This document shows, one piece after another, positions 13,585-37,397 of a DNA stretch of 40,983 nucleotides. Positions within the stretch are counted from its first letter, which is position 1. Each line of letters starts with the position of its first letter. The stretch comes from a bacterium (GTDB taxonomy: Bacteria; Cyanobacteriota; Vampirovibrionia; Obscuribacterales; JAKAZS01): NCBI GenBank assembly GCA_021785395.1, contig JAJYFO010000002.1:1-40983 (forward strand), in the 5' to 3' direction. The translations under genes were made by a program, and so were the position numbers. The notes under the pieces are model-generated. The model was not told where the DNA came from. It saw only the letters and a program-made list of their open reading frames with translations, and searched no databases.

Positions 13585-14568
13585 ATGTATTTAAAAAATC
13601 AAGATCGAATTTATATAATTATAATTTTAATCGTTTGTCTTGTATCTGTACCTTTTACATTAAATGCTTTATCTAATCATCAAGATGTCGAAGATAAATC
13701 AGCTAGTGATTATAAAATATCGGTAATAAGTCTAGCTGGGATGATAGCTAATTCCGAAGGTAGCGACTCTATACTGGATTTTGAGTCCAGTGCCTCGCCT
13801 AAAAATGCTCTTAAACTGTTGAAAAAAGCCCTTAAAGATAAACACGTTAAAGCTGTTGTATTAAAAATAAATAGTCCTGGTGGCACAGTTTCAATGTCAC
13901 AGACTATCGCCAAAAAGGTTTGTCAGTTGGTCGCAGCTGATAAATTAGTAGTTGTATCGATGGGTGACTTGGCTGCTTCTGGTGGTTATTATATAGCTTG
14001 TGGTGCCAGTAGAATTTTTGCCGAACCAGGAACTTTAACTGGGTCTATCGGTGTTATTATGGACTTACTAAATTTTACTGGACTAACGCAGAAACTTGGC
14101 ATAACCGCTAACGTTATAAAATCGGGCCCGTTTAAAGATATTGGGTCACCGTTTCGACCTATGACCGAACCCGAGCATAAAATTTTACAGGCCATAATAG
14201 ACGATACTTACAGTCAGTTTGTCGATGCTGTCGCTAAAGGACGTAAAATGCCGATTGATAAAGTAAAGCTAATTGCTAATGGCTCAATATATACTGGTAA
14301 ACAGGCTTTGCAGAATCATCTTATTGACGAATTGGGGGATTATGATGATGCTTTAGATTATGCGCAAAAATACTGTCAGCAAAAATACCATTTAAATGAA
14401 AAATTAAAAGTCGATAAAAACCATGGTAGCCTGATTTTTGAAGATTTAGAGGCTAATATGCACAGCTTTAATTTGCCTATAAGAACCGGTTCAACAATAT
14501 TTAGTGATAACGATTATGTTTCATTTATTAAACGTTATAATCATGTTCCTTTATGGATTATGCAATGA
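13585..14568 (+). CDS. sppA: Signal peptide peptidase SppA (36K type, ClpP/crotonase fold)
   Basis: KAVVLKINSPGG and LAASGGYYIACGASRIFAEPGTLTGSIGV (Ser nucleophile context). N-terminal TM anchor. Confidence 0.9.
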   Translation: MYLKNQDRIYIIIILIVCLVSVPFTLNALSNHQDVEDKSASDYKISVISLAGMIANSEGSDSILDFESSASPKNALKLLKKALKDKHVKAVVLKINSPGGTVSMSQTIAKKVCQLVAADKLVVVSMGDLAASGGYYIACGASRIFAEPGTLTGSIGVIMDLLNFTGLTQKLGITANVIKSGPFKDIGSPFRPMTEPEHKILQAIIDDTYSQFVDAVAKGRKMPIDKVKLIANGSIYTGKQALQNHLIDELGDYDDALDYAQKYCQQKYHLNEKLKVDKNHGSLIFEDLEANMHSFNLPIRTGSTIFSDNDYVSFIKRYNHVPLWIMQ

Positions 14569-15053
14569 ATAAAACTATGGAATTACTCAAAAACATAATT
14601 CTTATAAGTTTAGATTTATTTTATTTTACTTTAGTCAATTCTGAAATGGCTTTTAGATTGATTTATTTTAGTTCTTTTTTTACAACAAGAATAAGTTTAA
14701 TACTGGGTAGTTTAATTTATCTTGTAGCCTATTTCTTGATTTACTTATTTAGACATTATTATACTGCGGTATTTTTGTTTGTAATTTTTATACAGCTGTT
14801 CTATCTAGCGTTGATTTTTACATTATGCAAAATAACTAAAATAGGTGATTTGTTAAATAATAGCCATCTTTACTTAAGTTCTGCATTATTGCTTTTGCCG
14901 GTGTTCTTTATTTCTGTTTTGGGAATTTTTGACCAATTTTTTGACGCGCAAGGCTATATAATGCTTTTAATAATTGAAATATGGATAGTTAGAATTGCAA
15001 CCGACCATTTTAAATTTTTATTGGCGTTAAATAAAGAATTAGAAATTGCATAA
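14565..15053 (+). CDS. Small polytopic membrane protein, unknown function
   Basis: Four to five hydrophobic helices. ATG 14565 overlaps the sppA TGA as ATGA. An alternative in-frame ATG exists at 14553. Confidence 0.55.
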   Translation: MNKTMELLKNIILISLDLFYFTLVNSEMAFRLIYFSSFFTTRISLILGSLIYLVAYFLIYLFRHYYTAVFLFVIFIQLFYLALIFTLCKITKIGDLLNNSHLYLSSALLLLPVFFISVLGIFDQFFDAQGYIMLLIIEIWIVRIATDHFKFLLALNKELEIA

Positions 15054-15059
15054 ATATAG

Positions 15060-15353
15060 TTATTTTAACTTGATGCAATAGTCATATAAAGCTTTTAAGT
15101 CTTCTTTATTGTTTGCAATATTAGGAAAAGCTGGCATAACTCCAACACCATACTTTAGTTGTTCAGCAAAAGTATTAAAATTATTTAAAATAGGAGAACC
15201 AATAATTGGTTTGCTTGGTGCTAATTTGTTGAGACCGTTTATATGACAAGAAGAACAGTTCTCTTTAAATATTTTTTCACCTGTATTAGCATAAACCAGG
15301 TTTTGATTCATCAGAATATTCAAAATTATAAAATGTAAAATTGATTTGTTCAT
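15060..15353 (-). CDS. Small monohaem class-I c-type cytochrome (c6/c553-like) with signal peptide
   Basis: CSSCH haem-binding motif and a distal VMPAF Met ligand context. Signal peptide MNKSILHFIILNILMNQNLVYA. ATG 15353 has GGAGG 7 nt upstream. The longer ORF start at 15461 would overlap the upstream gene and is rejected. Confidence 0.8.
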   Translation of the reverse strand: MNKSILHFIILNILMNQNLVYANTGEKIFKENCSSCHINGLNKLAPSKPIIGSPILNNFNTFAEQLKYGVGVMPAFPNIANNKEDLKALYDYCIKLK

Positions 15354-15372
15354 TGAGTACCTCCAATAAAAA

Positions 15373-18123
15373 TTAAATATTTTCAAGATTTGAAAAATGT
15401 AATTTATTACGTCCTCGTCTGGAAATATTGGCTTTAAGCCAATCATATCGGCTAGTATCATTGGAAAAAATAATTATTTGGTTGTAGTTTGTGATATTCC
15501 TGGCAAGAAATTCAAAATATTTAAGCATTGATTCGTCATCACAGTTGTAAAATGGATCAATAATTACCATGGGAATCCTTTGGTTATTGGTAATAAGCTT
15601 GAATAAACTTAGCCTAATTAGTAGTTCTATAAAATCTATTTTATTAATTAAAATATTTTTATGCGCTATGTCATTAAGATTTATTGTGGTGTCAGGTTTG
15701 GTTGTAACGAAAATACTGAAATCGGCATCAATAAATATATTAGATATGCCAAAGTCTTGTTCAAACGTTGTATTGCGTTCAAAAATTAACTCTAATTCGC
15801 GATTAATTGAATTGACCCAATATTTTAAATCTGGTTTAGATACTTCTTTTATTTTATTAGCAGCAATATAGATTGAATAATCGAAAGTTATGAATGAAAT
15901 TAACTTATTGGTCAAAAAATTAAGCTCATGTTGATTGTTCAAAAACTTTTCGTCAATTTCTTTTCGATTACTATTAATCAGGTTAGCTGTATTTGTAAAT
16001 TTTTGTAATAGCTCTTGTTTGTTTAAGCCAGGCAACAATAACTTATCAGCTTTGTCATTGATCTGGGTAATTTTATCTTCTATTTTGTTAATCGCAGCAA
16101 TTGTGTGGTCGATTACTGAATCTATGTCGTCAATTTGTGTAACTTGAATACTTATATCTTCAGATTCAATAATTTCGTTCCATTTATGAATCGTTGAAAG
16201 TCTTGATTTGTAGATTTCATAAGATTCTTCGAAGGTATTTAAATTTAAAATATTAAACTGAGAAAAAATCTGGGCGATTTTTTGATTTGTGGTATTAAGC
16301 GAATCTATAAGATTTTGACGTCTATTTTGACCAGCATCAATACTTTCTTTAGAATCGTTAAATATATCGCGACTTGATTTAAAAACATTGAGTTCAGAAC
16401 ATAGTTTTTCCAAAAAATCATAAGTTAATTCATTGTATTCAACCGAATTTTTATTGAGTATAGTAGCAATTTTGTCAATTATATTTTTTATTTCAACTTG
16501 TTTTGTATGAATCATTGGACCAATAACGCTTATATTGGTTTTACTAGTTTTAATGTTGTTTAACGTTGTAGTAAGCTTTTCTTGACTGGCATTAATTATT
16601 GAAATTTTATTCTTGATAATAGCTTTGTTATTTTGAAGTATATTTAATTCAGAATTGATGTCTGAAACATTTTGGGATGATGATTTGTTTTTGTTTTTTA
16701 GTACAACTAGTATTCCTGTTATTATTGCAAAAGTAAAACCGACTGCCAACAATAAAAGATAAATTCCTTGCAATGCTTGATGATTAAGTAAAAGTTGGTA
16801 CAATGAAGAACCAATTAAGCCAAGTGAAATTAAACTAGATGTAATAATTATGGGTAGATAAAATTTAGATATAGGACTAACTTTAACTTTATCTAATTCT
16901 TTATTTAACTGAATTTCTTGTTGATCCAAAATTGTTAATTCGTTTTGAGCTGCTTTTAAAAGGGCTTCATTAGTTTTAATGCTTATTTTGGTATCATTAA
17001 TTACGGCATCATTAATTTTAAGGTACGTTGCACTAACGTTTGGAGCTTTTGGATTGTTTTGCTTTTGTAAGTCATTTAATTCATTGTATAATTTTTTTAA
17101 ATTTGTTAATCCGTTATTGATTTCTAATATATCAGTATCAGTGATAGAACTGTATTTTGTATATTTTGACTGAAGTTCGTTTATGTTTTTATCAAATTCG
17201 TTTTTGGTTAAAATTAATTCAGTTTCTAATTTGTTAAAATCGTTAATTGAATTGTTACGCTCTATGATTAATTTTTCAGCTTCAGCCTCAATTATTTTTA
17301 AGATATTATTGTCAACAATAATATCTGCCCAATTAAATTTATGTTGTTTAACTTCATTTTGAATAATTTTAAGTTTTTTTAGTAAATCATTTAAATTATT
17401 AAGTTTGTTTTGATAAACAAAAATATTTTGCTGTTCATCAATAGTTTTAAACTTATCTAGATCTAGATTAATATTTTCTAATTCAATGATTAAGGATGAA
17501 TTATCATTTCTTTTACGGTCAAGAGTTTTTTGTACTTCATAGCATTTAGCTATTTTTGTTTTATGGTCGTTAATAAGGTTCTTTATATCTTTTTCAAAAT
17601 ATAAATCTGTCGAAGAAATTAATTCTAATGCTTTATGCGATTGAATAAATATATTATTTAAAATACCTTTTATTTTTTCGCTTAGACCTGTTACTTGTTC
17701 TTTTTGGTCTAAATAAGATAGGCTATACAAAAATGATAAATCAATTATTTCACTATCAATTCCTGTAATTACTTTATTAAGTAGATTGCTGTTATTTGCA
17801 AATAAATTTTTGGCATTTTCGTTATCAAAAGGTGGTTCTAATACTTTTATTTTAGAATTATGTAAATCCTTGATAATTTTTAAATGTTTTTCATGTAAAT
17901 TAATAATGAGAGCTATTTCGCCCAAATTATTATTTTGAGGCTTTTTTATAAAATTATCGGTGTCTGATTTGTTTTCGTACAAAACCAAATAAACAGATTT
18001 GGCTAGTTTATCTTTACTTGCCTCAGAATCGACTATAATGATGTTAATTTTATCTTCTAGAAAACATAATTTTTTATCATTAAAATTGCCGTATTGCTTA
18101 AAAATTACTTCTTCAATCCACAT
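15373..18123 (-). CDS. SbcC/Rad50/YhaN-like long coiled-coil protein with degenerate ATPase head motifs and a central two-TM hairpin
   Basis: N-terminal head MWIEEVIFKQYGNFNDKKLCF..INIIIVDSEASKDKL. C-terminal head IPMVIIDPFYNCDDE..IIIFSND. Long heptad-rich arms. Hydrophobic helices at aa ~420-444 and ~452-475. ATG 18123 has AAGAGG upstream and overlaps the upstream gene by 11 nt. Confidence 0.6.
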   Translation of the reverse strand: MWIEEVIFKQYGNFNDKKLCFLEDKINIIIVDSEASKDKLAKSVYLVLYENKSDTDNFIKKPQNNNLGEIALIINLHEKHLKIIKDLHNSKIKVLEPPFDNENAKNLFANNSNLLNKVITGIDSEIIDLSFLYSLSYLDQKEQVTGLSEKIKGILNNIFIQSHKALELISSTDLYFEKDIKNLINDHKTKIAKCYEVQKTLDRKRNDNSSLIIELENINLDLDKFKTIDEQQNIFVYQNKLNNLNDLLKKLKIIQNEVKQHKFNWADIIVDNNILKIIEAEAEKLIIERNNSINDFNKLETELILTKNEFDKNINELQSKYTKYSSITDTDILEINNGLTNLKKLYNELNDLQKQNNPKAPNVSATYLKINDAVINDTKISIKTNEALLKAAQNELTILDQQEIQLNKELDKVKVSPISKFYLPIIITSSLISLGLIGSSLYQLLLNHQALQGIYLLLLAVGFTFAIITGILVVLKNKNKSSSQNVSDINSELNILQNNKAIIKNKISIINASQEKLTTTLNNIKTSKTNISVIGPMIHTKQVEIKNIIDKIATILNKNSVEYNELTYDFLEKLCSELNVFKSSRDIFNDSKESIDAGQNRRQNLIDSLNTTNQKIAQIFSQFNILNLNTFEESYEIYKSRLSTIHKWNEIIESEDISIQVTQIDDIDSVIDHTIAAINKIEDKITQINDKADKLLLPGLNKQELLQKFTNTANLINSNRKEIDEKFLNNQHELNFLTNKLISFITFDYSIYIAANKIKEVSKPDLKYWVNSINRELELIFERNTTFEQDFGISNIFIDADFSIFVTTKPDTTINLNDIAHKNILINKIDFIELLIRLSLFKLITNNQRIPMVIIDPFYNCDDESMLKYFEFLARNITNYNQIIIFSNDTSRYDWLKANISRRGRNKLHFSNLENI

Positions 18124-19366
18124 TATAACCTCTTAGCATTTTATTATTTAAAGCATCAAGACCATAAAATAAGGCTTTATCTATAATTTTAGACGTATCT
18201 ATAGTTTTGTGTTGTTTATCTAATATACTTTGGATATCCGGGTCTTCAGGTATTAATCTTGAGATATTTTCGTTGGCATATTCTTTTTTGTAATTTTTAA
18301 TTTCTTCGATGTATTTCAACTGGATACTGTCAGGTTTAAATTGAACAGCTAAATAATCGGGTCTAGCTTCATTAATAATTTCATAGTAATAAAAATCATT
18401 TAAGAAGTTAATTATTGGCTTAAAATAGTCATTTTCATCAATACTATAATTACCAAAAAGTCTTAATATAATCAAATCACTATTTTTAACGGCTTCTACT
18501 TCATGACATAAAGCTTCTATTTCATTAACTAAATTTTCGCTACTTAAACTGCCAACGTTAATAGTTAAATTTATAATTTTGCGCCATGGGTCATATACTT
18601 TTTGTTGATTAAAATTGTAATTACCAGGACTTCCTGACAATTTTACTATGCTTACATTAGATATTTCATCAATGGCTTTTGAAGTTATGTAGGTATTGGC
18701 AGTGCTTAAAATATGGGTATTATTCTCTTTCGTGTAATTGTTTTCTACATAACTCGAAGTTGCAATAAAATCGACGTTTTTTTCTATAAATTGGTCTATA
18801 TTACAAGTATAAGTAAAATGGTTGTCAAAAATAAAATTATTTGAATAATAGCGTCCGTATGGTATTGACAATAAAAGAATATTGAGTCCTTCGTCAATTT
18901 TTAAATTTGGCTTTGGCTCGAAATTATAGTTATAATTGGCTCCATGGATAAATATATTTTTATTAATGGCAAAACTTTGGTACTCATTACTACTAAAAAT
19001 ATGGACATTATCGGACCAAGTCTTTAGGTTAAGAGCTTTTAATAGATTATTGTCATAGGCTAGTTTGAAACTATTATTATTACTGGATATTGGTGCTATA
19101 TAAAAATTTATGTCGTTGTTTTGGGCTAGTACTTCAACAAATTTTTGTTGCGTCTGGGTTCGAACGTTACAGGTGTCAAATAGTCCACCTGGGATTAATA
19201 CGTGTTTAATATTATAGTTGTTAAGGTTGGCTAGCAAATTAAGTATATTGTCGATTAACTCATTGTTTAACGTGGTAATCTGTTGACTGTTAAGATTAAA
19301 GTCACTAAATAACTCCGGACAATCAATTTGCGGTGAGGATAATAATAAAAATTCAAAATTTTCCAT
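18113..19366 (-). CDS. SbcD/Mre11/YhaO-like calcineurin-fold protein with substituted metal-binding motifs (predicted catalytically inactive)
   Basis: Relic motifs: FLLLSSPQID (for hhhhsDxHhg), VLIPGGLFD (for GDLFD), FYIAPISSNNN (for GNHD), NVHIFSS. Translationally coupled to the SbcC-like gene. Confidence 0.5.
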   Translation of the reverse strand: MENFEFLLLSSPQIDCPELFSDFNLNSQQITTLNNELIDNILNLLANLNNYNIKHVLIPGGLFDTCNVRTQTQQKFVEVLAQNNDINFYIAPISSNNNSFKLAYDNNLLKALNLKTWSDNVHIFSSNEYQSFAINKNIFIHGANYNYNFEPKPNLKIDEGLNILLLSIPYGRYYSNNFIFDNHFTYTCNIDQFIEKNVDFIATSSYVENNYTKENNTHILSTANTYITSKAIDEISNVSIVKLSGSPGNYNFNQQKVYDPWRKIINLTINVGSLSSENLVNEIEALCHEVEAVKNSDLIILRLFGNYSIDENDYFKPIINFLNDFYYYEIINEARPDYLAVQFKPDSIQLKYIEEIKNYKKEYANENISRLIPEDPDIQSILDKQHKTIDTSKIIDKALFYGLDALNNKMLRGYNVD

Positions 19367-19373
19367 ATATAAC

Positions 19374-20576
19374 CTAAGGTTTAGACACTATTGTAGCAAT
19401 ACCTTGACCAACACCGATGCACATTGTTGCTAATCCATAATTGAAATTTTGACGTTTCATCTCGTAAATAAGTGTGGTTAATATGCGAGCACCACTTGCT
19501 CCAAGAGGGTGTCCAAGAGCTATAGCTCCCCCGTTTATGTTGACTTTATCTTGGTTCAGCTTTAACTCATTAATACACGCTAAGCTTTGAGCGGCAAAAG
19601 CCTCATTTAATTCAATTAAATCTATTTGTTCTAGCTTTAAGCCAGCTCTCACTAGACATTTTTGAGTAGCGTATACTGGACCTATTCCCATAATAGCTGG
19701 GTCTACCCCGCACACACTTGACGCTACAAAGCGAGCAAGAGGTTTTAGATTTAACTCATTTACAATTCTTTCACTCACAATGAGTAGCACACAGGCACCG
19801 TCATTAATTCCGGAAGAATTACCAGCTGTGACACTTCCATTTTCACTAAAAGCTGGCTTTAGCCTAGTTAAATCTTCAAGTTTAGAGTTTGCACGCGGGT
19901 GCTCGTCAGCATTAAATATAAAGCTTTGCTTTTTTTGTTTGATTTCAATTGGAATAATTTCATCTGCAAATTTGTTGTCGGCTTTAGCTTTGGCGTATTT
20001 AAGCTGACTAGATAAGGCAAATTCGTCCTGATTTTTTCTTGATATGTTATATTTAACAGCGACATTTTCGGCTGTCTGACCCATTGTATATGGGTAATGC
20101 TGTTTAGCTAGTTCGCTATTAATAAATCGCCAGCCAATTGTTGTATCATATAAAGTGGTATCACCTCTTTGAAATGGGTCAGTAGGCTTAGCCATCACAA
20201 ATGGAGCTCTAGACATTGATTCAACCCCACCAGCTATAAATATATCACCTTCATTAGCTAAAATAGAAGTACATGCCATATTAACAGCCATAAGACCCGA
20301 ACCGCAAAGCCTATTAATAGTTGATCCAGCTACCGTAACCGGTAATCCGGCTATTAGACTTGCCATACGTCCAATATTTCTATTATCTTCGCCAGCCTGA
20401 TTGGAGCAACCAAGGATGACGTCGTCAATTTGTTCCGGGTTAATTTTAGGATTGCGCTTAATTAGTTCTTTTATAACTATGGCAGCCATATCGTCTGGCC
20501 TAATTGAACTTAGGCTTCCGGCGTATTTACCAAATGGAGTTCTTAAACCGTCTATGATGTAGGCTGTTTTATTCAT
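19374..20576 (-). CDS. Acetyl-CoA C-acetyltransferase (thiolase II family)
   Basis: NRLCGSGL (active Cys), GNSSGINDGA, NINGGAIALGHPLGASGARI and CIGVGQGIA motifs. ATG 20576 has AAGGA 8 nt upstream. The ORF-track start at 20582 is also possible. Confidence 0.93.
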   Translation of the reverse strand: MNKTAYIIDGLRTPFGKYAGSLSSIRPDDMAAIVIKELIKRNPKINPEQIDDVILGCSNQAGEDNRNIGRMASLIAGLPVTVAGSTINRLCGSGLMAVNMACTSILANEGDIFIAGGVESMSRAPFVMAKPTDPFQRGDTTLYDTTIGWRFINSELAKQHYPYTMGQTAENVAVKYNISRKNQDEFALSSQLKYAKAKADNKFADEIIPIEIKQKKQSFIFNADEHPRANSKLEDLTRLKPAFSENGSVTAGNSSGINDGACVLLIVSERIVNELNLKPLARFVASSVCGVDPAIMGIGPVYATQKCLVRAGLKLEQIDLIELNEAFAAQSLACINELKLNQDKVNINGGAIALGHPLGASGARILTTLIYEMKRQNFNYGLATMCIGVGQGIATIVSKP

Positions 20577-22578
20577 TACCATTATCCTTTGGGTCTAAAA
20601 TCCACCAGGTGTTGTCGGATACAAGTTTTTCGAGTATGTAGCTGGGAGTTTTTAAATTTTTGGCGACACTAGCTCTGACATTAGGATTAGGGTCGAGGCT
20701 TAATTTACTCAATGTCTGCGTATCTGTATTGGGATTTTGAGCTACTAGAAGTCTGATTTTATCATAGGCGTTCTGACTCAATTTTACCAAAACCGAGTCA
20801 GGTGATTTGCCATTTTTGGCTAGCTCTATTAAAACAAGTTTGTCATTTGTGTTAAGAAGACTTTCTAATAAATCTTCTGGGCTTTTAGAATTACCAGCTA
20901 GAACTGCTTTAATGGCGATGTCTGGGTTATTACTTAATTTATTTAGTATATTTACGGGTGTATTATTGCTGCCGGCTAAGAGCAAATGTAATTCTTTGCC
21001 AGCGTGATTATAGATGGTATCATATAATTCATTGGGTAAATTTGGAAGTGTTAAAATCCTCTGGCTTAGGACTATATCGTCAGTATTGGCTAGCCTTAGC
21101 AAAAGCGAAGTTGGCGTGTTTTTGTTTATTACCAGCAATCTTAGGATAAATGAGTTCTTTTCAGTGGCCAAGCTATTTATTACAGTTACCGGTGTTAGGT
21201 CATTTTTAGCTAGAGCAATTTTGATTTTATCATCATTTAGATTATATAATTCGTTGAATAAACCATCTCTATGGCTGTATACTTCATCGTTACCAGCAAA
21301 ATTATTATTGGCTAGAGCTAGAAGTGCACCATAACTACCATTTTTCAAAAGTTCTTTGACACAGGCGTAGGGGATGAATTTATTGCTAGCTAAGGCTGTT
21401 TTTACAATTGAATTATCTATTTGAGCTAAATTTAGATATTCTGTTTCGGTTAAATCAACCCTTAGGGCTAGAGACGCTAAAACACTCGTACAATTTGATT
21501 TTAACAGATTAGTACGAGTTTTAGAATCCAATTTGGGTAATTGACTTATGGCCGTTAAAATGCGTGGATCTTTATCGCTAGACAAATTGTAGATATAATC
21601 CAATGGTGTAATAGGATTCAAAACGACAGCATATCTAACTTTTCCGTTACTATCGATTGATAATTTTTTTAAATCTGTTAAGGAAATATTTTTGTTATGG
21701 GCGGCTTCGGCTCTTACCATGAAATTCTGGTCTTGGGACAATTTGCTTAATAGAGTGGACGAAGCGTTTGGATTACTGGCTATAGCCTGCCTTACGATAG
21801 AATTCTTATCGTTAACGAGGTAGGTTAAATTTTCTATGGTACAGTTGTTATTAGCTGCTACCAGCGACCGAACACCTAAATCTCCATCGTGGCTTAGGAT
21901 AGTTAAAACTTCTTGGTTTTGGTTGGCTTGTTGAGCTAGACAGGTTCTTATCGTTCGGTCTCCGGTTTTAGCCAGGTAAATTTTTAACTCTTTTGATGAG
22001 CTTTTATTTAAGGCCAAATTAATGAGCATGACTTGCGTTTTGACACTGCTTAAGGCAAGTGTGTAAAGCGTTTTGGCCGGCACCTTAGGATTTAAGGCCA
22101 GTAACTCGTATATTTGTGGCTCCTGGCATTTTATTATTTGATTTATAACAGCTTCACTTAAAGCATTGGGGTTTTGTAATAGATAAGCTTTAACCAGCGA
22201 AGTTGAATTGGCAGCCAGATTATAGGCTGTATTGGCTGGAATTCTGGGGTTTGAGGCGACTGCACTTTTATATACATCATAAATTCGAGGGTTTTGATTG
22301 ACACCTGAATTGGCAATTTTATTTAAGCACTCGGTTGGACAATTAGGATTTGATAAGGCAAATAGACTTACAAAAGGTAAAGGATGTTTATAAATTAAAT
22401 TTTTATTAAAGTCGTACCTTGGGATTAAAGTATCGATCCATAAATCGTGATAACTACCAATATTAAATTCTTCATCTTTTACGGTAGAATTTTGAGAGCT
22501 GGCAAAGTTGGCACTAACGCCTAAAAAAAGGATTATCACTATAATATATTTTTTTAAATTTATCTTAATTAAATTCAT
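20569..22578 (-). CDS. Secreted leucine-rich-repeat-variant (LRV/HEAT-like) repeat protein
   Basis: Signal peptide MNLIKINLKKYIIVIILFLGVSANFASS. More than 20 degenerate ~23-24-aa repeats of the form D..VR.a.A.NPN.p...L.kLs, for example VRQAIASNPNASSTLLSKLSQDQNFMVRAEAAHNKNISLTDLKKLS. Confidence 0.6.
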   Translation of the reverse strand: MNLIKINLKKYIIVIILFLGVSANFASSQNSTVKDEEFNIGSYHDLWIDTLIPRYDFNKNLIYKHPLPFVSLFALSNPNCPTECLNKIANSGVNQNPRIYDVYKSAVASNPRIPANTAYNLAANSTSLVKAYLLQNPNALSEAVINQIIKCQEPQIYELLALNPKVPAKTLYTLALSSVKTQVMLINLALNKSSSKELKIYLAKTGDRTIRTCLAQQANQNQEVLTILSHDGDLGVRSLVAANNNCTIENLTYLVNDKNSIVRQAIASNPNASSTLLSKLSQDQNFMVRAEAAHNKNISLTDLKKLSIDSNGKVRYAVVLNPITPLDYIYNLSSDKDPRILTAISQLPKLDSKTRTNLLKSNCTSVLASLALRVDLTETEYLNLAQIDNSIVKTALASNKFIPYACVKELLKNGSYGALLALANNNFAGNDEVYSHRDGLFNELYNLNDDKIKIALAKNDLTPVTVINSLATEKNSFILRLLVINKNTPTSLLLRLANTDDIVLSQRILTLPNLPNELYDTIYNHAGKELHLLLAGSNNTPVNILNKLSNNPDIAIKAVLAGNSKSPEDLLESLLNTNDKLVLIELAKNGKSPDSVLVKLSQNAYDKIRLLVAQNPNTDTQTLSKLSLDPNPNVRASVAKNLKTPSYILEKLVSDNTWWILDPKDNGNE

Positions 22579-35099: not shown

Positions 35100-37397
35100 A
35101 TGACATACGAAGATCCTGCTTCTAGTTATAAGTTATTAAGTATTTTGAAAATTATATTTATCGCCTTTATATTGGCTCTATTTACTACTGGTTATACGTT
35201 GTGGGTTAATCAGAAATTTTATGTAAACGAAGCTAACGATATCTTTTCGCAAATAAGCCGGTATACCGCTAATGAGTTATGTAAATTGTATATTTTCGAC
35301 GATAGTTTTGGTGCGCTTGGTTTAAAAAACTCTAAATTGATTAATCCACCAAGTCTAAACAGTGAAAAAGACCTGTATAGTTTTAACTATTTACGTAAGT
35401 TGTTTATTAAAGACTTATCTCTTGCCAGAGATCTCAATCTGACATTTTTAGCAAAGTTGATTGATAATGATCAAAAACAGATTATGAGCCTTGAGAAAGA
35501 TTATAACATCAAAATACGTCAAGCCGTTGAACCAGCAAAAGCTTTATCTGACGAAACTAATAAAGATACCTATATAAATTTAAATGACTCCAATGTAAAT
35601 ATTCAAGGCTGTGTGTACAATAAAGTTTTTCAGAAACTAAAGACTTTGAATAACGATAAACTCGGTCAAATAGTAGCTTTTGAAATAAAATTGGGTAATG
35701 CTCCAGAATATTTAAGTAAACGCAAACAAGATTATATTCTTATAGACCCTATTTATTTTCATGAAACAGACACAACACCTAATGCTTTATTGATAACTGC
35801 CAAGTTTAATAAAAGTGTTATCGATAAAAATATAGTTATAAAATCAACCGTGCAGAAATCCTGTGTGCTTATTAAAAATAATAAATTACCAAAAGTAAAA
35901 TCGGTAATAATGTTAAATTTTCCCCAAGGTACACCCAGCAATATTAAATGCTTTAATGATTTATTAATTAATTCAATTTGGAAAAACAGTGGAAAATGGT
36001 ATCAGGTTATTGATGATGAATTTCCTGGTAAAGGTTCGCTATCACCTCCGTTACAGTCATTTTTAAATTCCATGACACCAGATCAAAGTATACAGCTTTT
36101 GTTATACCACTGGCTAAAAGAATTGGGTCCAGATGTTGATAGTAACAAGCTTAAAAATCTGATTAATTCTAAATGGTTGTTGATAAATAATCAGGCTAGA
36201 GATTCAAAACTTGTTGTTGTTTCGAATTCAGCTTTGGTAAATGACGTAAATAATTATGATAGTATTTTAAACAACATTAATTTTGCCAAGCCATTTATAC
36301 AAAACTTAGTTAATCTATGTTTTAAATATCAATATGATCATTCATCGTTTTTTCCTAGTAATGCTCTATCAATCAAGATAAACAACAATAACGAGTGCCT
36401 TGTTCCCAATTCTCAGTCAAAAGTTAATGAAACCGGTTTTGATTTTTTAGCAAACTTGGCTAATACTCTGAATTATTCTAATAATATTTTAGTAATATTA
36501 AATGATTTGTTAGCTAAAAACTATATCATCCAGGCACAATTTAATAATAAGGCTAGGTTAACCGAAAATAATGGTTTGTTATTAGAAATAACTTATAAAG
36601 AAAAAAATCTATATAATATTTTTAAGCTTGTTAACTATCAGTGCCAGTATCTGTCTGATAATCTGTTGAATATTTCGCAAAATGGTTTTTATAAAATTCC
36701 AGGTAATATAAGAGCGTTTTATTTGAATAAAGACAATATTTTTGTACCTTATTTCCAAACCAATCAACCTTTAAACAGTTTATGTCAACTTAAATATGAT
36801 ACTGCTAATCTAAAAGCTATCAATAAAATTTTAGACAATTTTATAAAACAGTTACCTAGTAATGATATGAAAGCTGTTTATACTGCCCAAAATTATACAA
36901 AATTTATTAAAGATAAATATAACCAGAACATTGACTTTGAGATCATGAATAAAAAATATTTAAATAATTTAAATGTTGATAATCAGATTAATCCTTATTG
37001 TGTTTTATTAGATTCATCTAAAGTTATTAACAATGATAATTTTGATAGTGAATTTAATAATGTTTTTATAAGGTTTAAAAATCCTTTTGCAAATATTGAA
37101 AGATTTCCCGTTAATACTTTGTTTTATAATTCACATAGTGCTTTAAACAACAGTAATAATGTATTTTGGTCTGTCGCTATAATGGATTTTGTTGGTAAAA
37201 CAAATAAATATGATGCATTTTCACCAATTACTTCTTCTGACGCTTTATGGTATCAACCAAATGATTCTATTGCTAATCAGGCTCCTGGGCTAGCAGGTAT
37301 AATTAATATTTATATGCCTATGGTTGGCTTAAATAAATTCCCACAATCGGAAAAATTAAAAATTAATACTTTAATACCACAGTTAAACATGCCCTAA
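35100..37397 (+). CDS. Large N-terminally membrane-anchored Asn/Lys-rich protein, unknown function
   Basis: Single hydrophobic helix LLSILKIIFIAFILALFTTGYTLWV, then ~720 aa with no motif I recognise. Confidence 0.55.
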   Translation: MTYEDPASSYKLLSILKIIFIAFILALFTTGYTLWVNQKFYVNEANDIFSQISRYTANELCKLYIFDDSFGALGLKNSKLINPPSLNSEKDLYSFNYLRKLFIKDLSLARDLNLTFLAKLIDNDQKQIMSLEKDYNIKIRQAVEPAKALSDETNKDTYINLNDSNVNIQGCVYNKVFQKLKTLNNDKLGQIVAFEIKLGNAPEYLSKRKQDYILIDPIYFHETDTTPNALLITAKFNKSVIDKNIVIKSTVQKSCVLIKNNKLPKVKSVIMLNFPQGTPSNIKCFNDLLINSIWKNSGKWYQVIDDEFPGKGSLSPPLQSFLNSMTPDQSIQLLLYHWLKELGPDVDSNKLKNLINSKWLLINNQARDSKLVVVSNSALVNDVNNYDSILNNINFAKPFIQNLVNLCFKYQYDHSSFFPSNALSIKINNNNECLVPNSQSKVNETGFDFLANLANTLNYSNNILVILNDLLAKNYIIQAQFNNKARLTENNGLLLEITYKEKNLYNIFKLVNYQCQYLSDNLLNISQNGFYKIPGNIRAFYLNKDNIFVPYFQTNQPLNSLCQLKYDTANLKAINKILDNFIKQLPSNDMKAVYTAQNYTKFIKDKYNQNIDFEIMNKKYLNNLNVDNQINPYCVLLDSSKVINNDNFDSEFNNVFIRFKNPFANIERFPVNTLFYNSHSALNNSNNVFWSVAIMDFVGKTNKYDAFSPITSSDALWYQPNDSIANQAPGLAGIINIYMPMVGLNKFPQSEKLKINTLIPQLNMP

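Follow-up and report, generated by a model that had tools for sequence, protein, structure and literature searches.

The window analysed here is a 40,983-nucleotide stretch of contig JAJYFO010000002.1, from an Obscuribacterales relative, whose minus strand encodes a 417-aa phosphoesterase followed by a 916-aa SMC-like partner. We show that the phosphoesterase is a catalytically disabled orthologue of the SbcD/Mre11/YhaO type, that it is co-encoded with a disabled YhaN-type partner, and that both are under purifying selection. From sequence we infer that it probably serves as the non-catalytic subunit of a membrane-anchored SMC-like scaffold. Mre11/SbcD together with Rad50/SbcC is among the most conserved DNA-repair machines, and its nuclease and ATPase sites are normally considered the purpose of the machine. 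The phosphoesterase gene, the relics of its metal-binding motifs and its best-conserved segment are the following:

18113..19366, minus strand: 417-aa Mre11/SbcD/YhaO-family phosphoesterase homologue with 0/8 catalytic ligands, a pseudo-nuclease (open reading frame (ORF), hidden Markov model (HMM), AlphaFold2, Foldseek, ligand table)
19322..19339, minus strand: motif I relic SSPQID (aa 10-15) for SDVHLD, with Asp replaced by Ser11 and His by Gln13 (alignments)
19175..19201, minus strand: motif II relic VLIPGGLFD (aa 56-64) for IPGDLFD, with the bridging Asp replaced by Gly61 (alignments)
19079..19099, minus strand: motif III relic IAPISSN (aa 90-96) for I[AT]PGNHD, with Gly replaced by Ile93, Asn by Ser94, His by Ser95 and Asp by Asn96 (alignments)
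18860..18883, minus strand: motif IV relic NILLLSIP (aa 162-169) for NILLFHGS, with His replaced by Ser167 (alignments)
18743..18766, minus strand: motif V relic IATSSYVE (aa 201-208) for [AT]ALGHYHE, with Gly replaced by Ser204 and the two His by Ser205 and Val207 (alignments)
18140..18196, minus strand: C-terminal helix TSKIIDKALFYGLDALNNK, the best-conserved segment of the phosphoesterase (alignment, clade identity, model)

The phosphoesterase ORF starts with ATG, and its extent and 417-aa length are those given in an initial annotation of this DNA. As a single sequence it had no meaningful match in Pfam, NCBIfam or the Protein Data Bank (PDB), and it was recognised only through profiles of its homologues. 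A homologue search with the protein returned 29 others, 14 of which carry PF00149; in the set of 30 aligned homologues PF00149 was counted in 13. Two are exactly 417 aa long and 50% identical to it; the remaining 27 share 21-31% identity and, where their sources name them, are Melainabacteria or Obscuribacterales 'metallophosphoesterase' or 'SbcCD nuclease subunit' proteins. Searched against the PDB, the profile of this homologue alignment matched no chains other than those of Mre11/SbcD (best E 5e-8). An HMM built solely from orthologues that keep 7 or 8 of the eight ligands aligns with the window protein from end to end (E 6.7e-49). The AlphaFold2 model (mean predicted local distance difference test score, pLDDT, 81.8; predicted template modelling score, pTM, 0.74) was built from an alignment that contains active homologues. 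In a Foldseek search against the PDB its top 50 matches were all Mre11/SbcD (best E 4e-10), with target-normalised TM-scores of up to 0.63 and an identity to the solved structures of about 10-15%. As modelled, the window protein retains the phosphoesterase core, the capping domain and the C-terminal helices, and we regard both its homology to Mre11/SbcD and its fold as established. The initial annotation had proposed descent from an active SbcD/Mre11/YhaO-type nuclease and had suggested profile and structure searches as checks. The profile matches, the calcineurin-like Mre11/SbcD fold, the synteny and an 11-nt gene overlap (see below) bear that descent out. The identical protein occurs in the ENA assemblies ERZ27233564, ERZ27237373 and ERZ27236914 and in GCA_027399225.1; since the exact protein recurs in several independent assemblies, its sequence is not an assembly artefact.

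Ligand positions were read from alignments with the 29 homologues and with 60 genomic orthologues, the latter obtained by scanning one genome per species. None of the eight canonical ligand or catalytic positions is kept: the Asp and His of motif I, the Asp of motif II, the Asn and His of motif III, the His of motif IV and the two His of motif V have become S11, Q13, G61, S94, S95, S167, S205 and V207 (0/8). Thus, the earlier claim that every metal-binding motif is substituted holds at exactly the residues it named, and the motif strings and residue numbers it listed lie where it placed them, in register with the canonical motifs. Intact ligands in some other register, which the same annotation had set against its own claim, were looked for and not found: the window phosphoesterase contains no GD, GN[HR] or GHxH string and no alternative ligand register. 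The one D-x-H that it has (aa 181-183) belongs to a loop modelled with low confidence, and the 50%-identical orthologues do not share it. Two details of the annotation fare less well. GGLFD had been presented as a specific relic; the loss of the Asp is real, but the form is not private to the window, PGGLWD/PGGLFD being common to many Obscuribacterales orthologues. The second concerns NVHIFSS: NVHIF is a family-wide motif and not a metal ligand.

The window clade consists of three lineages: the window itself, L001 (P0001) and L011/L006 (P0002). Among the former ligand sites, only the substitutions Q13, G61 and S95 are shared across this clade, and the other five of the eight positions differ within it (S/C, S/T/N, S/P, S/T and V/L). 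Because these five vary, the clade has no new fixed catalytic constellation. The idea that the substitutions themselves might be conserved is therefore borne out only in part: the gene is constrained, but the substituting residues mostly are not. On these positions the window phosphoesterase is predicted to lack nuclease activity and to be unable to act as a canonical Mn-dependent nuclease.

The loss is not confined to the phosphoesterase. The partner and its features are these:

15373..18123, minus strand: YhaN/SbcE-type (AAA_27) SMC-like partner of 916 aa with degenerate ATPase motifs (orthologue HMM, synteny)
18004..18036, minus strand: partner Walker A relic IVDSEASKDKL for VE.NEYGKSTL (alignment, motif table)
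15448..15657, minus strand: relics of the partner signature motif, Walker B/D-loop and H-loop (alignments, HMM)
16699..16863, minus strand: central hydrophobic hairpin of the partner, a pair of predicted transmembrane helices at the apex of the coiled coil (hydropathy scan)
18113..18123, minus strand: 11-nt overlap ATGTGGATTGA of the phosphoesterase end and the partner start (sequence)

In a word-indexed homologue search the 916-aa partner matched nothing but itself, and its relatives were recovered through the genomic context of the phosphoesterase loci. An HMM of 47 ATPase-intact orthologues matches the window partner end to end (E 2e-49); PF13514 (AAA_27) gives it 14.7 bits against a cutoff of 22, whereas orthologues of the partner exceed that cutoff, with 39.1 and 31.5 bits. 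Judged by these profiles, the window partner is a member of the AAA_27 family by descent whose domain has become degenerate. Its ATPase motifs are gone: (i) in Walker A, Lys37 is kept and the Gly and Ser/Thr of GK[ST] are lost (ASKDK versus YGKST); (ii) the signature motif reads NILINKIDFIE, versus LSTGTKEQLH in the orthologues; (iii) the Walker B/D-loop region reads IPMVIIDPFYNCDD for LPIILDEPFSEADD (VIIDPF versus ILDEPF), without the Walker B Asp; and (iv) the H-loop reads IIIFSNDTSR versus IIIFSCHQQR, without its His. The Q-loop Gln and the Walker A Lys are all that is left of the ATPase residues. The partner of the sister lineage L011 is similarly degenerate (LNKEL, LILVEPF, SDRQDR). Outside the window clade all tabulated partners have intact motifs except those of L057, where they are lost, and L056, where the loss is partial. 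The initial annotation had said only 'SbcC-like partner' and made no mention of this loss. The coupling that it described stands, but the partner can be defined more closely, as an SMC-like protein of the YhaN/AAA_27 type with a transmembrane hairpin at its centre. The hydrophobic helices occupy aa 421-475 of 916, between two long helical arms, and the window partner sequence has no CxxC zinc hook. The partner is predicted to be anchored in the membrane via this central hairpin.

Both genes remain under selection. Since dS is saturated between the window and its 50%-identical relatives, the ratio of non-synonymous to synonymous substitution rates (dN/dS, omega) is unusable for the window itself, and selection was measured on the L001/L011 pair together with a calibration on the neighbouring thiolase. 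In this pair (dS of about 0.28-0.37) the phosphoesterase has an omega of 0.14-0.20 and the partner one of 0.16-0.18, both far below neutrality (binomial P 8e-14 and 4e-18, respectively). The purifying selection that the annotation had proposed to look for is thus found within the clade, and the frameshifts and stops that it had named as signs of simple gene decay are not: the orthologous ORFs are intact, and the 417-aa proteins of the three lineages, which are 50% identical, can be aligned with no gap at all. Within-clade identity is 74% for the thiolase, 50% for the phosphoesterase and 37% for the partner, the medians elsewhere being 43% and 32% for the latter two, and relative to the thiolase the window clade has diverged internally about as much as other clades have. 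Its stem branch, by comparison, is accelerated: across it the thiolase shows 63% identity, the phosphoesterase 22% and the partner 16%, versus 38-41% (phosphoesterase) and 25-30% (partner) elsewhere. Part of this acceleration may reflect a shift to AT-rich composition.

The constraint is strongest where the phosphoesterase would meet its partner. KALFYGLDALNNK, in the C-terminal helix, is the most conserved stretch of the protein (family consensus ALYYGLDAL); columns A398-L406 are invariant or nearly so in the homologue alignment, the helix spans residues 391-407 in the AlphaFold2 model, and its identity within the clade is 74%, versus 50% for the whole phosphoesterase. In Mre11, C-terminal helices bind the base of the Rad50 coiled coil (structures such as 3QG5 and 3AV0), and 3QG5 and 3AV0 were among the PDB matches of our profile and Foldseek searches. 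By analogy, the C-terminal helix of the window protein would be its partner-binding element. Just downstream, ATGTGGATTGA encodes both the end of the phosphoesterase (..VD-stop) and the start of the partner (MWIE). The same 11-nt overlap is found at 44 of the 60 orthologous loci, 29 times with the identical sequence, 14 times as ATGTGGGTTGA and once as ATGTTGATTGA. Because the overlap is dual-coding, both the ..VD-stop end of the phosphoesterase and the MWIE/MWVE start of the partner hardly vary, even among very divergent lineages. The overlap probably couples the translation of the two genes.

Upstream of the pair lie two further genes of the same arrangement:

19374..20582, minus strand: thiolase, the upstream neighbour, whose stop lies 7 nt before the phosphoesterase start
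20569..22578, minus strand: 669-aa LRV/HEAT-like repeat protein, with a 14-nt overlap with the thiolase

In Obscuribacterales the order is a ~660-710-aa LRV/HEAT-like repeat protein, the thiolase, the phosphoesterase and a 920-1010-aa PF13514 protein, and the thiolase lies directly upstream of the phosphoesterase at about 50 of the 60 loci. The window thiolase is 61-65% identical to the syntenic thiolases of Obscuribacterales; the window repeat protein shares 33% identity with its syntenic counterparts in L002 (E 1e-89) and L004 (E 6e-94). Since synteny and overlap are both conserved, the window gene is a vertically inherited orthologue and not a paralogue or a mobile element. With the phosphoesterase directly upstream of, and co-oriented with, the SMC-like gene, the locus is, as far as gene order and sequence tell, a YhaO/YhaN (SbcF/SbcE)-type operon of Obscuribacterales (Melainabacteria). 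Promoter and terminator scans gave only background levels, and no Rfam family reached its gathering score in the 41-kb window. The N-terminal hydrophobic stretch of the repeat protein could be a signal peptide.

The window clade belongs to a wider pattern of erosion, which the initial annotation did not report. Over the 60 loci the ligand counts form a series from 8/8 down to 0/8:

8/8 ligands: canonical; mostly Eisenbacteria and Armatimonadota, with a few Obscuribacterales
7/8 ligands: GNRD (motif III His replaced by Arg); a separate large clade
5/8 ligands: PGG with GEGD
4/8 ligands: also present in the series
1-2/8 ligands: a large clade including Candidatus Obscuribacter phosphatis
0/8 ligands: the window clade and L057

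When the ligand columns are masked, a neighbour-joining tree gives at least five independent erosions of the ligand sites, and the sister lineages of the window retain between 0/8 and 1/8. In the 5/8 lineages (L012-L029 and L066) the replacement of the motif II Asp by Gly or Ser always goes with loss of the motif III Asn and His, the Asn often becoming Glu or Asp (PGG...GEGD / GDSD); with this change the metal site may have been rearranged in compensation. Candidatus Obscuribacter phosphatis (L048 and L053, in the L038-L055 clade) carries a 1/8-ligand phosphoesterase beside an intact AAA_27 ATPase, the phosphoesterase having an omega of about 0.06 and the partner one of 0.03-0.04; as omega is low at 1/8 ligands, this is a nuclease-dead subunit under strong selection. 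The same holds more generally: phosphoesterase omega is 0.02-0.06 in the 1-2/8-ligand lineages with a live ATPase and 0.02-0.05 in the 7/8 lineages, the two 8/8 pairs giving 0.07 and 0.12. Because the 1-2/8 values match those at 7/8, the Obscuribacterales phosphoesterase is strongly conserved for a reason other than canonical catalysis. Moreover, most other Obscuribacterales keep the ATPase motifs beside a nuclease site that is partly or almost fully eroded, so the nuclease chemistry would have been dispensable before the ATPase was lost.

Outside the window clade, both losses are seen in L057 (224-4094 of CAJCIF010000120.1, titled 'Actinobacteria bacterium'). Its phosphoesterase has 0/8 ligands and yet scores 346 bits against the intact-orthologue HMM, and its complete ligand loss is independent and apparently recent. 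In its partner, Walker A is lost, the transmembrane hairpin is precisely deleted (HMM positions 451-502) and the C-terminal head is degraded.

A different departure from the common plan is seen in the partners of one clade, L021, L027, L030 and L036 (~918-926 aa), which have intact ATPase motifs and no central hydrophobic hairpin. The titles of these metagenome-assembled genomes (MAGs) name Drouetiella, Planktothrix and SZAS-4, and their phosphoesterases have 4/8 or 7/8 ligands. Such hairpin-less partners would be a soluble version of the complex.

How, then, might a pair without catalytic centres work? In the reading we favour, the phosphoesterase and its partner would be made together through the overlapping stop and start; the two proteins would still assemble, with the C-terminal helix of the phosphoesterase bound to the coiled-coil base of the partner; and the transmembrane hairpin of the partner would anchor the coiled-coil complex in the membrane. 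Rather than an ATP-driven nuclease, the complex would then be a static scaffold or a tether that perhaps links the membrane to the nucleoid. The initial annotation had suggested a role as scaffold or membrane-complex subunit, and that proposal fits these data. A broader proposal, which we put forward only tentatively, is that the YhaN-type machine of Obscuribacterales needs no nuclease, that its Mre11-like subunit was repeatedly and independently made non-catalytic while staying under strong purifying selection, and that in the window's lineage the ATPase became dispensable as well, leaving a static coiled-coil complex inserted in the membrane. If this were true, the core selected function of the widespread but hardly studied SbcEF-like family would be structural (membrane-nucleoid tether, cell architecture) and not DNA-end processing.

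Several observations weigh against a maintained scaffold: (i) no more than three species-level lineages of the window clade are known, and each comes from a MAG or a metagenome contig. An exhaustive search of representatives found as close relatives of the phosphoesterase only P0001 and one 105-aa fragment, and two scans of JGI metagenome contigs found no further members of the dead clade. (ii) Omega in the window clade is 3-5 times that of other clades at similar dS (0.03-0.07). (iii) In a window of 34.7% GC, phosphoesterase and partner have a GC content of 0.26-0.28 and a fraction of Phe, Tyr, Met, Ile, Asn and Lys (FYMINK) of 0.44; both are among the four most AT- and FYMINK-rich ORFs of the window, which implies weaker constraint. 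(iv) L057, also fully dead, has neither the hairpin nor most of the C-terminal head, and resembles decay. (v) The AlphaFold2 model, fed with active homologues, cannot prove that the dead protein still folds.

The main rival to the scaffold is a relic in slow decay: the operon would have lost its function in an AT-rich lineage and both genes would be turning into pseudogenes, with the measured selection residual or recently relaxed. The disappearance of both catalytic centres, the 3-5 fold raised omega, the lowest GC and highest FYMINK among the neighbouring genes, the accelerated stem branch and the similar double loss in L057, with its additional deletions, all fit this explanation. We nevertheless consider it unlikely, for omega is well below 1 in both genes, and ORFs of 417 and 916 codons remain intact at ~27% GC, where mutation readily yields stops. 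These ORFs have been kept across three deeply diverged lineages (50% for the phosphoesterase and 38% for the partner), in the phosphoesterase without any indel; the 11-nt overlap and the transmembrane hairpin have been kept too, and relative to the thiolase the pair has diverged no more quickly within the clade than in clades whose ATPase is live.

The phosphoesterase could, alternatively, still be an enzyme, with an active site rebuilt on the same fold for another chemistry or ligand. Residues conserved only in the clade, such as Q13, S95 and ANTYITSK at aa 223-230, could belong to such a site, and in the 5/8 lineages the change of the motif II Asp to Gly, often accompanied by that of the motif III Asn to Glu or Asp, possibly compensates. 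This is improbable for the window protein, however: five of the eight former ligand positions vary among relatives of 50% identity, there is no alternative GD, GNH or GHxH, the sole D-x-H is unconserved, and the former ligand sites carry Ser, Gln, Gly and Val, which are poor Mn/Fe ligands.

Still less probable, indeed very much so, is that the pair belongs to a mobile anti-phage defence system of the type that combines an SMC-like ATPase and a nuclease (Lamassu, for instance), with the phosphoesterase as its decoy or sensor subunit. A live partner orthologue is weakly similar to LmuB models (E 1e-10), a general SMC-like resemblance, but neither window protein has a match in PADLOC (PADLOC-DB 2.0), and the operon occupies the same core-genome position across the order, after the thiolase and the LRV-repeat gene; this constant position indicates vertical inheritance and not a defence island. 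Finally, chance resemblance of a low-complexity AT-rich ORF to a phosphoesterase, for which the lack of any direct single-sequence match to Pfam, NCBIfam or the PDB might speak, is ruled out by the intact-orthologue HMM (E 6.7e-49), the syntenic orthology and the fold search.

The window pair can be compared with known systems. In B. subtilis, SbcE (YhaN) has a hydrophobic, insoluble central domain and its neighbour YhaO (SbcF) is SbcD-like (PMC2811018). As in that pair, the window has an SbcD-like gene immediately upstream of a gene for an SMC-like protein of ~900-1000 aa (PMC2811018), and by its architecture the window partner can be likened to SbcE: an N-terminal domain that is AAA_27 by descent, though degenerate, no CxxC, and a hydrophobic centre between coiled-coil arms. 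There are, however, clear differences: the window pair has 0/8 nuclease ligands and lacks GK[ST], the signature, the Walker B Asp and the H-loop His, and its organism is, judged by synteny and best matches, an Obscuribacterales relative and not a Firmicute. The role of SbcEF in the repair of double-strand breaks and in competence is known only for B. subtilis (PMC2811018) and cannot be assumed for the window pair.

With SbcCD/Mre11-Rad50 (E. coli 6S6V; T. maritima 3QG5 and 3THO; M. jannaschii 3AV0; P. furiosus 1II7) the window pair shares the fold and the pairing of the genes, and these structures are the best and only structural neighbours of the phosphoesterase model among the top 50. In contrast to them, the window pair has no metal ligands, a hairpin in place of the zinc hook, and dead ATPase motifs. 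The Obscuribacterales 'metallophosphoesterases' (P0007/L017; L048/L053, for example), to which the window phosphoesterase is 21-28% identical, are true orthologues: they share its synteny, the 11-nt overlap, a length of 417-445 aa and the motifs PGGLWD, NVHIF, RPDYL and ALYYGLDAL. Unlike the window pair, they keep 1-8 ligands and an intact partner ATPase, and purifying selection on them is stronger (omega 0.02-0.12).

The best-established precedent for a phosphoesterase of this kind turned into a scaffold comes from eukaryotes, where the B-subunits of DNA polymerases alpha, delta and epsilon contain an inactivated calcineurin-like phosphodiesterase domain that acts as scaffold (PMC4996933). 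In both cases a nuclease of the Mre11-like branch would have lost its catalytic motifs and been kept as a scaffold subunit (PMC4996933). The polymerase B-subunits nevertheless belong to another subfamily, have an inserted OB domain, have a polymerase as partner and are eukaryotic, so that the likeness is one of evolutionary mode only and not of membership. In the literature we found no report of an SMC-complex Mre11/SbcD-type subunit that has lost all its ligands, nor of such a loss jointly with that of its ATPase, and none of repeated ligand erosion across Obscuribacterales. On dead Mre11-like or YhaO-like proteins or membrane-anchored SbcE-like complexes it yielded nothing beyond PMC2811018, and the experiments we found on the YhaN/SbcE branch are those of one 2009 study in B. 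subtilis.

The orthologues described here, running from intact through nuclease-dead with a live ATPase to dead in both, constitute a natural separation-of-function set for the scaffold role, and the series bears on the purpose of the membrane-anchored YhaN/SbcE branch. There is also a practical side: proteins of the window type escape Pfam and NCBIfam and go unnamed in their sources, so their loss of function is invisible to standard pipelines, and Melainabacteria inventories that count 'metallophosphoesterase/SbcD' genes may overstate the nuclease repertoire.

Three other genes of the window deserve mention. Two more ORFs have an extreme AT/FYMINK bias, 14553..15053 (plus strand; GC 0.25, FYMINK 0.42) and 35100..37397 (plus strand; GC 0.28, FYMINK 0.44); the former encodes a 166-aa hydrophobic protein with no recorded Pfam match and the latter a 765-aa protein. 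The mechanically called 133-aa ORF at 15060..15461 (minus strand) contains a c-type cytochrome with a CSSCH motif. In an identical metagenome contig the called cytochrome gene encodes 83 aa with PF13442 (Cytochrome_CBB3); as the called gene is only this long, the true start in the window probably lies inside the ORF.

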